Positions 3,382-57,402 of a stretch of 64,000 nucleotides of DNA are shown piece by piece. The notes below the pieces were generated by a model. That model did no database searches. It saw nothing but the letters and a program-made list of their open reading frames with translations, and had not been told where the DNA came from. How positions within the stretch are numbered: the stretch's first letter is position 1; each line of letters starts with the position of its first letter. The stretch spans positions 315,766,001 through 315,830,000 of the forward strand of contig OZ024743.1 of assembly GCA_964016885.1 (NCBI GenBank), read 5' to 3'. A program made the position numbers and the translations under genes. The DNA comes from Eledone cirrhosa (lineage: Eukaryota).

Positions 3382-3446
3382 TATTTCCTTATACATATTT
3401 CAGGGATACCAAATTAAATTATGGTATGCCTTCATCAGACAAAATA
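3382..3446 (-). ncRNA. Type I hammerhead ribozyme in PLE pseudo-LTR
   Basis: CUGAUGA-AGGCAUACCA..UGGUAUCCCU-GAAA-UAUGUAUA on the minus strand. Confidence 0.75.
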
Positions 3447-3586
3447 CAATATATAACAGTTTTACAAATAAGCTTTGACGTACCACTATGACTTATTAAA
3501 ATAATATAATCCGGATGGCTTCCAAAAATAATGGTTGCATTTTAATAGGGTACGTCAAAGCTTATTTGTAAAACTGTTATATATTG

Positions 3587-3651
3587 TATTTTGTCTGATG
3601 AAGGCATACCATAATTTAATTTGGTATCCCTGAAATATGTATAATGAAATA
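3587..3651 (+). ncRNA. Type I hammerhead ribozyme (inverted copy)
   Basis: Stem I UAUUUUGU/AUGAAAUA, CUGAUGA 3595-3601, GAAA 3632-3635. Confidence 0.8.
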
Positions 3652-3913
3652 AATATGGTTTTATAAATATAGTTTCCATTTGTTAATATCGTATATCTAC
3701 TCCAAATAATTGTCGAGTGCTTTATATCAGTTATAAAAATATTTACTTGTATCCCAACAATTTTAAATAGAACTTTTGCATATATATATATATATATATA
3801 TATATATATATATATATATATATATATATAGAGAGAGAGAGAGAGAGAGAGAGAGAGAGAGAGAGAGAGAGAGAGAGAAATATACACGGGTGTGTATGAT
3901 TGTGTATAGAAGA

Positions 3914-4305
3914 TTATATTAATAAGAGGAATTCCAACTTTGTCTGATTTACTCGTTTTATTTACGATCGTTTAAAATTTATAATGGTATTATAATGAAA
4001 TAGTATGATAGAATATTAAATGTTAAGTGTTAATTGAACAAGTACTTTCATGCTTTCGCAATCTTCAGGTTCATAATGTGTGGTGACAGTCAAGTTTGCA
4101 ATTTTCAACTGTTGAAAATTGCAAACTTGACTGTCACCACACATCATGAACCTGACGATTGCGAAAGCATGAAAGTACTTGTTCAATTAACACTTAACAT
4201 TTAACATTCTATCATACTATTTCATTATAATACCATCATAAATTTTAAACGATCGTAAATAAAACGAGTAAATCAGACAAAGTTGGAATTCCTCTTATTA
4301 ATATA
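3914..4305. mobile_element. Fold-back non-autonomous element with one HHR per arm (4035-4074 minus, 4146-4186 plus)
   Basis: Near-perfect palindrome with arms of about 195 bp centred near 4110. UGAAC-CUGA(C/A)GA-U-UGC-GAAA-GCA-U-GAAA-GUACUU-GUUCA. Confidence 0.8.
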
Positions 4306-4612
4306 TATATATATATATATATATATATATATATATATATATATATATATATATATATATATTATATATTATATATATATATATATATATATTATATATA
4401 TATATATATATATATATATTATATATTATATATATATATATATATATATATATATATATATATTATATATTATATATTATATATATATATATATATATAT
4501 ATATATTATATATTATATATATATATATATATATATATATATATATATATATATATATATATATATATATATATATATATATATATATATATATATATAT
4601 ATATATATATAT
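4302..4612. repeat. (TA)n microsatellite
   Basis: Direct reading. Confidence 0.97.
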
Positions 4613-4777
4613 ATGCAGGTATGGACATACAATAAAGAATGCAAATGCAAAAGATATTGTTGACAATTAGTCTTTTACTTTAGATTTGTTTAAATGTCCT
4701 TAATTTTCGAGATAATATCTCTTCTTAGGAGGGAAGTAAAGCGGTTAAACCAGTGTTCTAAATAACTTGCCAAGTCA
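4613..4777 (-). mobile_element. Solo fragment of the pseudo-LTR of the PLE at 7093-10860
   Basis: Similar to 7131-7292. The HHR core is mutated (CCUAAGA). Confidence 0.85.
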
Positions 4778-4958
4778 TATAATAATAATAATAATATATA
4801 TATATATATATATATATATATATATATATATATAAATGAAAAGTATAGATATTATTGTTACAAGAAGCCAACAGTATTCCATAACACACACACACACATA
4901 TATATATATATATATATATATATATATATATATATATATATATATATATATATATATA

Positions 4959-5159
4959 GGTACGTTATTCCGGGTTGAATCGGAGGTAACCACAGTAAAT
5001 AAGGTGCTCAATACATAGCAGAGAATAAAAGTTTTAATATAGATGAGATTCTACAGGACTAGAAGTGTTTCATTCTTTAGAAATCATCAGGAGATTCCTG
5101 ATGATTTCTAAAGAATGAAACAGTTCTAGTCCTGTAGAATCTCATCTATATTAAAACTT
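4959..5159. mobile_element. Short fold-back element with truncated HHR cores
   Basis: Arms 5030-5092 and 5096-5159, each with CUGAUGA-UUUC-UAAA-GAAU-GAAAC. The 5' strand of stem I is lost at the inversion point. Confidence 0.7.
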
Positions 5160-5992
5160 ATATATATATATATATATATAATTACTGGCGTGCTAATCAA
5201 CATACGTTGAGTTCTTCACAGATCGTACAGTACTGTATTATTAACCCCCTCTGCCTTCCACTCTTCATCAATATAACAACTTACCAGTCTGCATCAAGCC
5301 GCCAGTCATACAACACCTGATGGAGCCTTGTCTCACACGTGTTCGTGGACGGTGAGAAGTCTTGTATATTTGGTTGATTAATTAATTAATTTAATTATTA
5401 ACTGATAGGTTGATTAATTAACCGAGATTGGCTACTGGTGAAAGTTTCCTATCTTGGGTGCGCTAATTGTCCATTTAATGGTGGTAATTGCCACGTTTTA
5501 TTCGGAGCTAGAATCGAATGTCTGGGTGTACTGGTGAACAATGTATTGCTAAGCAATATTTCCTTGTTCTAACTGATTGTATACTCTATATGTTTGTTTC
5601 TTTTTATCAGATGTCTAATTTGCTGTACCATTAACGACATCTTGTGTGTTCCTTCTTCTTCGGAAATGTTAGTGTCTTTACATTAAGGGGTTATGATGTC
5701 ACCAAGTCAGTGTACAATTTATTTTGTATACTGATACCTAGATTATATATATAACAAAGATGGGTTGAATTTCTAAAAGGCTTTGGTATTTCTGTATATA
5801 TGTATATATATATATATAATAGTAGAATATAAGAGAAAACGAACACAGATATATACATATATGTGTTCAACTCGTAAGGGACCAGATTCGCTAAGGTGCA
5901 AAGAATACTAACTATAGACAATTGGGTTCGCTTGTCTCAATTTAAGAAAGAATCAAAAAAATAAATACAAACCGGAACTGTGGTGACTACCG

Positions 5993-6070
5993 ATCACCCA
6001 GACAACTTGTTGTTGTTTCGCAATGTTAATTGTGAATAGAATTACCAATTCAAGCTCATCAGTGGGTGAT
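5993..6070 (-). ncRNA. Canonical type I hammerhead ribozyme
   Basis: Stem I AUCACCCA/UGGGUGAU, CUGAUGA, G-C closed stem II, GAAA-CAAC-aacaa-GUUG-UC (GUC site). Confidence 0.9.
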
Positions 6071-54856: not shown

Positions 54857-55122
54857 ATTAAATATGTTATGATGCAACACTGAATCCTTGTTCTTTATTC
54901 TTATAGTATTATACCCTGCTCTGCGCGAGCATTGAGTGCTTAACCGGCATACCGCCTACGGACGCATTTTTCAAGCTACTATACAACTATATACATACAC
55001 ACACACACACACATATATATATATATATATATATATATATAATTGGTGTTGGATGTTTAAAGCACCGATTGAGCACTCGATGCTATTACAGCGTATTTTG
55101 GAATGTCTGGTTCGTAGAATCG

Positions 55123-55219
55123 AGACGTGTCTGACGACCTTGCGATTTCAGAGTCAGGGTCGATCATTACATCGATCGTGTCTCGAGCTGGTCGCCAGAG
55201 AAACGATTGTAATATGTCT
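55123..55219 (+). ncRNA. Type I HHR with about 60-nt stem II (relative of 54763)
   Basis: AGACGUGU-CUGACGA...GAAAC-GAUU-GUA-AUAUGUCU. Confidence 0.75.
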
Positions 55220-55302
55220 AATAAATTTTATTCGTCGCAACACTGATTCTCCGTTTCTTATGTGATATATATATATATATATATATATATATATATATAT
55301 AC

Positions 55303-55500
55303 AGGAAAAAGTATGACCCCGACGGCAGAGCTCAAGCCGTTTCGACGGCTATTTCTGGACCAATAGAAATAGCCGTCGAAACGGCTTGAACTCTGCCGTC
55401 GGGGTCATACTTTTTCCTATTTCCCACTCTACTACCTTAAATATTGAGTACTCTGGTGCGTTATGGTCCATCTGGTTCCTTACCACATTTCCTTTGTTAT
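55303..55500. mobile_element. Short fold-back element in (TA)n, with a rearranged relative at 57293-57402
   Basis: Hairpin 55303-55418 with arms of about 53 bp. Confidence 0.6.
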
Positions 55501-55691
55501 ATATATATAAACAAGAACTTATCGTTTTAAGTTCTGTTTGAATAGTATATATATTTATAAAGTATATATATATATATATATATATATATATATATATATA
55601 TATATATATATATATATATACTATTCAAACAGAATTTAAAACGATAAGTTCTTGTTTTGGGGATATGTCACTATTTATAAAACAACTTTTG

Positions 55692-55752
55692 TATTTTATC
55701 TGATGAGGGCGTACCAATATTTTGGTAACCTTGAAATATATATAATAAAATA
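55692..55752 (+). ncRNA. Type I HHR in a diverged solo Naiad-like pseudo-LTR
   Basis: UAUUUUAU-CUGAUGA-GGGCGUACCA..UGGUAACCUU-GAAA-UAUAUAUA-AUAAAAUA. Homologous to 3587-3740. Confidence 0.8.
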
Positions 55753-56545
55753 AATATGGTTTTATAAAGATAGTTTCCAATTAATAATATCATTTATATT
55801 AATAAGAAGAAAACTGTTGAGTGCTTCGAATCTGTTATAATTAAATTTGTTGAATAACCCAAAATTAAATAACTCTTCGTTTAAATATATATATATATAT
55901 ATATATATATATATATATATACACATATATATATATATTTATATACATATATATATATATGTGTGGTGGTGGGGGGGGGTTGTATGTATGTATATCTAAA
56001 GTACATATGTTGGAATCTATTACATGATAGTCACTTATATTTGTCATCGTCGATGTTAGTGTTTGTTATTTTCATGGAAGGGTGTAATATTTTATATCAT
56101 CACACTTATTTGAAATATTGTATACATTGAAGAAAAAAATAATTTTTTTTCTTCTCTAAATGTGTGATAAACAGTTTTCGAGAGTTGATAACACGTGGTT
56201 GGCTTCTGTTGATATTTTCTTCAAAGAAACAAAATAAGAGGTTTTTTTTCTACAGACAAGCAAAAGTTGGTTTCACAGCGAATAATCAACTTATTACACT
56301 TGGAAATATTTCTAGAATTCTCTGTGGTTACATATTTGTATACATTTGTGTGTGTGCGTGTGCGTGTGTTTATGCATCTATGTATATATATATATATACA
56401 TACATACACACACGCACATACACATACACGTACATACAGGCGCATATCTATCTATATATATATATATATATATATATATATATGCATACTTACAACCAAT
56501 AGGTTTTGTTGCATTAAATTCATCGTAGGTATTTTAATATAAACT

Positions 56546-56893
56546 GTGAATATATATATATATACATATATATATATATATAATATATATATATATATAT
56601 TTTATATATATTTATATATATATATATATATATATATATATATATATATATATATATATATACATATATATATATGTATATATATATATATACACATATA
56701 TGTATATATACATATATATATACATACATATATATATATATATATATATATATATATATATATATATATATATATATATATATATATTTAATATATATTT
56801 ATATATATATATATATATGTATATATATATATATACATATATATATACATACATACATATATATATATATATATATATATATATATATATATA
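56546..56893. repeat. Imperfect (TA)n microsatellite
   Basis: Direct reading. Confidence 0.95.
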
Positions 56894-56935
56894 TTGAATT
56901 CACAAGAATCAAAGTTATGTTTAAAATATTTATTC

Positions 56936-56980
56936 GCTGACAATTGTTTCTTCCAAACCTAGGCTTGGTATCTTCGGAGC
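56936..56980 (-). ncRNA. HHR with U4C core variant
   Basis: GCU-CCGAAGA-UA-CCAAGC-CUAG-GUUUGG-AA-GAAA-CAAUUG-UC-AGC. Confidence 0.65.
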
Positions 56981-57402
56981 ATTTTTAATGTTTGTACACA
57001 TAATTGACCTCCTACTCTGATTCTTGTGGGTTCAATATTACTGCTCTGTAAAACAACTGTTGTTCTTACATTGAACTATTTATCTTACTGGTAATAAGGT
57101 AGTAATAAATTACTCACCTTCCCTGTTTATAGTTGTTTATAGGATAATATATACATAACTATAAATAGTATCTTGATATTATATATATATATATATGTAT
57201 ATATATATATATATATATATATATATATGTATATATATATATATATATATATATATATATATATATATATATACATATATATATATATATATAACGAAGG
57301 AAATGTGGTAAGGAACCAGGTGGACTATAACGCACCAAAGTACTCAATACTTAGGGTAGTAGAAACGGCTTGAGCTCAGCCGTCGGGGTCTTACTTGTTC
57401 CT

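Follow-up and report, generated by a model that had tools for sequence, protein, structure and literature searches.

What brought more than twenty hammerhead ribozyme motifs together in the TA repeats of a single stretch of the Eledone cirrhosa genome, and are they a peculiarity of that stretch? In the window, by which the whole 64,000 nucleotides analysed are meant (contig OZ024743.1 of assembly GCA_964016885.1, positions 315,766,001 to 315,830,000, forward strand), AT-rich zones filled with (TA)n (1–12.5 kb and 51–58.2 kb) alternate with blocks of long interspersed nuclear element (LINE) open reading frames (ORFs). A sequence-only reading had listed 22 hammerhead sites and taken them for a swarm of about ten unrelated, mostly non-coding families confined to the (TA)n zones. 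Very probably, the 3′ ends of seven or more coding Penelope-like element (PLE) families and four non-coding tandem retrozymes have piled up in (TA)n, carrying type I folds predicted to self-cleave and likely inserted by the reverse transcriptase (RT) and GIY-YIG endonuclease (EN) of the PLEs. Family membership, coding partners, tandem units, TA junctions, inverted two-ended arms and stem covariation, all observed directly in the DNA, are the grounds for this answer.

Hammerhead motifs and their (TA)n surroundings

A descriptor for type I hammerheads (core CUGANGA with C3-G8 or UUGANAA with U3-A8, NUH, stem I of at least 4 bp, stem II of at least 3 bp and stem III of at least 2 bp) found 15 full motifs in the window, every one at a previously listed site. 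In 100 dinucleotide shuffles of the window, with microsatellites left in place, the mean was 0.2 and the maximum 3, far from an equal density. Family comparison identifies the remaining seven listed sites as hammerhead-derived too, two of them intact and five damaged. The motif at 5993(−) is canonical (stem I 8 bp, stem III 5 bp, GUC) and was not caught by the descriptor because its stem II is bulged, and 10664(+) is a minimal-type hammerhead with a weak stem I. Among the damaged copies, stem I carries a mismatch at 3382(−) and is absent at 5063(−), 7215(−) has a short deletion, and the core is changed at 42849(−) (C3 to A) and 56936(−) (U4 to C); other members of these families are intact or nearly so. 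All 22 sites thus stand as hammerhead-derived, and looser CUGANGA..GAAA matches at 1114, 2233, 15824, 30042, 37757, 40403, 46462, 48239 and 62772 were dropped because they failed the stem test.

No hammerhead family reached its gathering score in an Rfam scan of the window, the best being HH9 with 20.1 bits against a cut-off of 52; the variants present here fall outside the Rfam models. For covariation, A-type motifs from every locus were selected on core plus stem III only, stems I and II not being demanded in order to avoid circularity, and 19 representatives of 81 distinct sequences were aligned. In these 19 diverged rows, 87% of the cells are paired and 17 of 20 pairs have changed on both sides, a level attained in none of 500 shuffles and compared with 34–51% in slid controls; as the rows are related, this is support and not a probability. 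The motifs are real sequence features, of type I by core, stem order I-II-III-I and NUH.

The hammerhead-free stretches at 12.5–41.5 kb and 58.2–64 kb, which bear the (TAT)n and (GATA)n LINE blocks said to be devoid of motifs and indeed yield no match, contain no (TA)6+ tract. The same descriptor was applied to 60 evenly spaced 10-kb stretches of the genome (600 kb) and gave 51 matches, compared with 2.35 in shuffles. A (TA)n tract lies within 250 nt downstream of 80% of these matches and of 15% of random positions, and CA, GA, TAA and GATA repeats show no enrichment near the sampled matches. The association with TA repeats therefore extends beyond the window; strict confinement is slightly overstated for the genome as a whole, where 9 of the 51 matches lack a (TA)n tract in the 300 nt that follow them (some of these are probably chance matches). 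Among family copies, (TA)4+ follows the 3′ end directly in 162 of 213 unique copies (nine families; E and H excluded).

Nor is the swarm special to this window, as 25 of the 60 stretches carry at least one motif. Motif density in the window is about three times the genome average. Extrapolated to the 3-Gb genome, the sample corresponds to about 2.4 × 10⁵ motifs (bootstrap 1.5–3.5 × 10⁵), a descriptor-dependent figure that counts mirror copies. Published hammerhead counts are about 5,000 for the mussel and 120,000 for the axolotl. The 46 strong sampled matches and the 12 window families fall into 30 clusters. The sample also holds several further hammerhead families not present in the window, among them another U3-A8 family (L336, L366), whose stem II is long and whose tandem spacing is about 595 bp.

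Coding Penelope-like families and non-coding retrozymes

Mapping of family references onto the window resolved the 22 sites into 12 families and only 16 insertions, since many paired sites belong to a single inverted insertion, one on each arm; mirror arms had inflated the apparent size of the swarm. The families are A (3382, 3587, 55692), B (4035, 4146), C (5063, 5098), D (5993), E (6592), F (7215, 10664), G (11026, 11338, 11697), H (12378, 42686), I (42849), J (51835, 54318), K (54763, 55123) and L (56936). They are somewhat more numerous than the roughly ten proposed and not all unrelated: 55692 is a subfamily of 3587 (85% identity), 54763 one of 55123 (77%), and the cores of 5098 and 11697 are alike over 28 nt. 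Seven PLE families account for 14 sites and four retrozyme families for seven, and I is placed in neither group. The features are as follows (a dot where no strand is assigned).

974–3016 (−): PLE1 ORF remnant, 680 aa, RT and C-terminal GIY-YIG-type EN; partner of family A
3247–3783 (.): family A, upstream pseudo-long terminal repeat (pseudo-LTR) of PLE1 and inverted arm; hammerheads 3382–3446(−), 3587–3651(+)
3864–4305 (.): family B, truncated PLE end, head to head, long end 3864, short end 4305; hammerheads 4032–4076(−), 4144–4188(+)
4613–4778 (−): family F end, degenerate third copy, not previously listed
4958–5164 (.): family C, palindromic insertion of a 176-bp non-coding retrozyme; hammerhead 5090–5144(+) with a 4-bp stem III, mirror without stem I 5044–5098(−)
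5813–6224 (−): family D, non-coding head-to-tail unit of about 510 bp; canonical hammerhead 5993–6070 (GUC)
6292–7041 (.): family E, non-coding head-to-tail unit of about 680–700 bp (−), inverted tail 6863–7041; hammerhead 6589–6675(−)
7093–10862 (+): PLE2, near full length; inverted arm 7093–7668, ORF 7560–10238, 3′ pseudo-LTR 10241–10862; family F hammerheads 7210–7251(−, deletion), 10660–10705(+, minimal type)
10891–11901 (.): family G, 312-bp tandem retrozyme judged very young, two units (−), one (+); hammerheads 11024–11070(−), 11336–11382(−), 11695–11741(+)
12229–12540 (.): family H, PLE end (−) and short inverted piece; hammerhead 12374–12419, U3-A8 core
42620–42764 (+): family H, second insertion; hammerhead 42682–42727, U3-A8 core
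42794–42992 (−): family I, old and decayed; hammerhead about 42845–42940, core C3 to A
51689–52089 (.): family J, PLE end (−) and inverted tail arm; hammerhead 51831–51881(−)
54177–54514 (.): family J, second insertion; hammerhead 54314–54364(+)
54655–54958 (.): family K subfamily, head-to-head insertion; hammerhead 54762–54857(+), 61-nt stem II domain
55045–55273 (.): family K, inverted tail and PLE end; hammerhead 55123–55219(+)
55672–55870 (+): family A subfamily end; hammerhead 55692–55752, compensatory changes relative to 3587
56891–57182 (.): family L, PLE end (−) and inverted tail arm; hammerhead 56931–56985, U4 to C

The genome was searched with eleven families and the longest copies were traced upstream, family F being left out because its ORF lies inside the window. 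PLE ORFs are collinear with A, B, F, H, J, K and L, each in at least two loci, so that the proposed link to PLEs is borne out and these seven families are truncated 3′ ends (pseudo-LTRs) of coding PLEs. That most families lack a coding partner in the window is correct as far as it goes, as only A and F have their ORF here; the other five have theirs elsewhere in the genome. In five of the seven long loci (L025–L029), the PLE1 ORF is followed by family A at a distance of about 1.7–2 kb, and the 3′ A copy of PLE1 itself lies within the 10 kb before the window, in a 3′ region 85% identical to another locus. The PLE1 protein, whose catalytic RT aspartates are altered in the window copy, has 21 matches, one of them from an argonaut. 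The PLE2 ORF, which codes for RT and GIY-YIG and measures 892 aa between stops, is flanked by family F both in the window and at locus L029. Families B (four long loci, L270–L273), H (two, L281 and L282) and J (five, L271 and L284–L287) lie downstream of PLE ORFs with RT and GIY-YIG. Family L lies downstream of a Hydra-type ORF in four (L278–L280 and L288), and in L279 the ORF stands between two L copies. Family K was first read as non-coding and was reassigned once the search had reached further upstream: more than 1.4 kb of common upstream sequence leads to a Hydra-like EN C-terminus about 2 kb upstream in 7 of 30 loci.

RT and GIY-YIG were assigned by Pfam matches for F, B and J, by motifs and similarity to PLE1 for A, L and K, and by similarity for H; the Pfam search did not recognise the Hydra-type ORFs. 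By their motifs, A, K and L appear to match the Hydra clade, having the CxCX5C linker, no CCHH, CxxC and CxH around E/N, and a (TA)n target; DKT was seen in PLE1 only, and K was read from decayed frames. A motif reading of B, H and J gives a CX4CxxC linker and CCHH, as in the Neptune/Nematis type. Pseudo-LTRs, partial tandems, an inverted 5′-truncated arm and an optional tail are all present in the PLE families. The U3-A8 core occurs in 24 of 25 distinct H copies, and only 3 of 33 distinct L copies keep CUGANGA, most showing core changes. In family B (L030–L059), 21 of 30 matches begin no more than 14 nt from a run rich in pyrimidines and closed by CAG (reference position 589–602), a sequence more like a 3′ splice site or the end of a transcript than like a hairpin.

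Families C (176 bp), G (312 bp), D (about 510 bp) and E (about 680–700 bp) are head-to-tail units with one type I hammerhead each, 33–38% GC and no ORF longer than 44 aa; the tandem arrangement of C is taken from the 2 of 25 loci that read into the next unit. By the published sequence definition (PMC7229834), all four classify as retrozymes, C and G falling inside the 150–450 bp range and D and E being longer. For these four the idea of a community of non-coding elements was sound. Family G gave 165 matches among the best 40 candidates, mostly 98–100% identical and in arrays on many contigs, which points to a very young family. Its unit is also present in four read sets of unspecified kind, with very high summed depth in one, an observation not used as evidence since RNA and a high-copy repeat are inseparable there. 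PLE matches near E, I, G and D loci were rejected as coding partners because no fixed distance was common between loci.

Two-ended inverted insertions and their rival explanations

How, then, did these elements enter the TA tracts? In each family the 3′ end occurs in two fixed versions, short and long, which lie 27–145 nt apart downstream of the predicted cut. An adjacent inverted arm accompanies 109 of the 213 unique copies (nine families), and the classifiable two-armed insertions join a short to a long end in 84 of 88 cases, where independently combined ends would give at most half mixed pairs; for the six families whose query held no junction, the count is 61 of 65. Retrozymes show the same rule (C 20/21, D 12/12, G 6/6), and of all the data here, this obedience to the end rule of the coding elements speaks most strongly for their being moved by PLE enzymes.

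In vitro, reverse transcription by an anole PLE begins at two internal sites, one on each side of the tail, with extension of both target strands and with uncut RNA as template (PMC11167929), and an optional tail on one inverted pseudo-LTR has been published (PMC3846280, PMC8557442). Together with the end rule, these observations favour priming from both cut ends. The PLE protein would cut both strands of a (TA)n tract and each of the two DNA ends would prime reverse transcription, at two fixed positions within the RNA, 20–180 nt and then a further 27–145 nt downstream of the hammerhead cut site; both cDNAs would stop early and be joined head to head, so that short insertions would consist mostly of the hammerhead region, twice. 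As both arms cross the cut site, the template would have to be RNA that is uncut, multimeric or circular. The likely role of the hammerhead is to resolve tandem transcripts into unit RNAs, in most families as dimers via a palindromic stem III and in C, D and E possibly as monomers. Since each insertion splits the TA tract and leaves targets for the next, clusters would build up. On balance, we lean somewhat towards protein-free retrozymes being pasted by Penelope enzymes through such twin priming, with one fixed RNA site per cut DNA end, in a genome whose roughly 250,000 motifs in dozens of families would be among the densest known.

Several points weigh against this account. An adjacent inverted arm is absent from 104 of the 213 copies, 21 two-armed copies are unclassed, and three long-long insertions and one short-short insertion break the end rule, for which the positions of the two ends were taken from the very data that were counted, with families E and H not counted. 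Each family search returned the best 40 candidates, which favours young copies. A comparison of retrozyme units with PLE ends found no sequence similarity that would name the helper family, and for family I, whose best relatives are only 73–84% identical, neither a coding partner nor a tandem unit was established in the loci searched. Minimal PLE hammerheads have been reported to cut poorly in vitro, and 8 of 9 frog retrozyme dimers did not cut.

The strongest rival retains the same elements but derives the arms from fold-back self-priming of one cDNA, or from priming on an antisense template, and we regard it as unlikely though deserving of serious weight. Palindromic junctions were read as self-priming in PMC3846280, a long-primed strand folding back also yields one long and one short end, and in family C a natural imperfect hairpin, which overlaps the catalytic core, lies no more than 6 nt from the start of all 25 sense arms. 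However, fold-back from the long end cannot produce a short-ended arm that reaches further upstream, as is seen in L036, L197, L204 and L014 and also for PLE1 in the window, with a short-ended arm of more than 4 kb and a long-ended one of about 300 bp; the junction clusters of B, J and A do not sit at strong hairpins. As the short-ended arm often extends further upstream, simple fold-back is disfavoured, and it may apply to family C. A general hairpin hot spot at inversion junctions was sought and rejected, being clear for C only (rank 2 of 36 scanned windows) and not for B (67/164), A (19/159) or J (9/155). In the hairpin of C (5078–5106 in our stretch; L307, L300), the CUGAUGA core of the family is itself base-paired, and the RNA fold of lowest energy keeps this core sequestered; in the folding model, the hairpin is a possible off-switch. 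The inversion junctions fall at the hairpin, and where the two read-through copies carry a mismatch, the junction copies have a perfect pair.

A second rival concerns not the insertion but the ribozyme: the folds could be kept as protein-binding or packaging signals, most of them not cleaving in vivo. For the anole PLE in vitro, insertion did not need cleavage and cleavage needed protein (PMC11167929), minimal motifs of low activity are published, and several families here have a U-U mismatch at the stem II base and NUU sites. Invertebrate retrozymes, on the other hand, cleave efficiently (PMC7229834), and the catalytic core and NUH are kept across the 30 sequence clusters, with compensating stems. 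We therefore consider a mainly non-cleaving role doubtful, and hammerhead self-cleavage at this locus is what the conserved motifs predict.

That all or most families form a non-coding retrozyme community without autonomous members is very improbable: four families are indeed non-coding tandem units and most window copies lack an ORF, but for 7 of the 12 families (14 of 22 sites) independent loci show an RT/GIY-YIG ORF as the upstream continuation, and their ORF-less copies are 5′-truncated ends. Inverted arms with TA flanks also resemble the anatomy of TA-targeting DNA transposons (miniature inverted-repeat transposable elements) with hammerhead cores as passengers or chance matches, a reading which is barely credible and was rejected together with chance, as the two ends differ, 5′ extents vary continuously, arms run into RT ORFs, units stand in tandem and stems covary.

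Neighbouring repeats complete the picture of the window. A 13th hammerhead family, absent from the earlier list, lies at 55303–55500 and 57291–57404 and occurs in 8 of the 60 sampled stretches; in most of its copies the sequence is truncated and inverted within stem II, so that GAAA, stem III, GUC and the 3′ stem I strand remain, and longer copies elsewhere have the core UUGAGAA or CUGAGAA. A tandem array of five units of about 443 bp (16328–18543), with a related stretch near 29137, gave no hammerhead match. The regions 12550–41500 and 58300–63500 hold nested LINEs with APE-RT ORFs, edged by (TAT)n/(ATT)n or (GATA)n and present in at least two near-identical copies (e.g. 19000–24800 and 35600–41500), a second set of microsatellite-associated retroelements. 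Many copies of a short repeat that ends at (ATT)n are scattered through the window (about 30350–30530, 33690–33880, 42450–42630, 43040–43420, 46650–46800 and 47730–48120), and a tRNA-like head is found at 44910–44979 (Rfam tRNA, 30.8 bits); these are probably short interspersed nuclear elements.

Known systems and significance

The components of this finding are published, namely PLE hammerheads, opposite-strand pairs, U3-A8 cores, TA targeting, inversions and retrozymes as PLE passengers, and it is therefore not a new system. With the PLE pseudo-LTR hammerheads of PMC4209133, the motifs share type I, a palindromic stem III for dimer cleavage, an extra nucleotide before stem II, the U3-A8 variant, many families per genome, mostly truncated copies, and opposite-strand pairs 100–700 bp apart. 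They differ in the long stem II domains and U-U at the stem II base of some families, and in number, the genome-wide estimate by our own descriptor being far above the 2,000–9,000 minimal motifs per genome given there. In the Hydra clade, almost all families insert in (TA)n and carry hammerheads (PMC8557442), and A, L and K resemble these EN+ PLEs in the presence of DKT (in PLE1) and CxCX5C, lack of CCHH, the hammerhead and the (TA)n target, as well as in the inverted 5′-truncated copy with an optional tail at one end. In contrast to that source, the 3′ untranslated regions are here 1.5–2 kb long and the tails 27–145 nt rather than 30–40; the clade of B, H and J (CX4CxxC, CCHH) and of F is read from motifs.

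Non-LTR retrozymes (PMC7229834; bioRxiv 10.64898/2026.07.22.740005) are likewise non-coding and AT-rich, with units that run head to tail and bear one type I hammerhead each; PLEs have been proposed as their mobilisers. Unlike those described, D (about 510 bp) and E (about 690 bp) exceed the range of PMC7229834, and the insertions here bear the PLE footprint of TA target, inverted arms and two fixed ends, with no kinship to pseudo-LTRs found. The anole Poseidon PLE (PMC11167929) shares the two tail-bounding RT starts, the cutting and extension of both strands and the uncut template, whereas in the accessible part of that work the sites are not assigned to inverted arms and non-coding passengers are not tried. 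A literature search, which did not cover subscription papers and supplements, found no cephalopod hammerhead survey, no twin-priming account of PLE inversions and no count of short and long ends.

How PLEs build inverted insertions and whether they move retrozymes are stated as open questions (PMC8557442, PMC7229834, bioRxiv 10.64898/2026.07.22.740005). If true, twin priming explains the PLE tail and the inverted arms alike, and the young, near-identical families C, G and A with their mapped ends make both questions directly testable. The value of the locus is that of a test bed, in a genome which appears unusually rich in natural hammerhead variants missed by the Rfam models.

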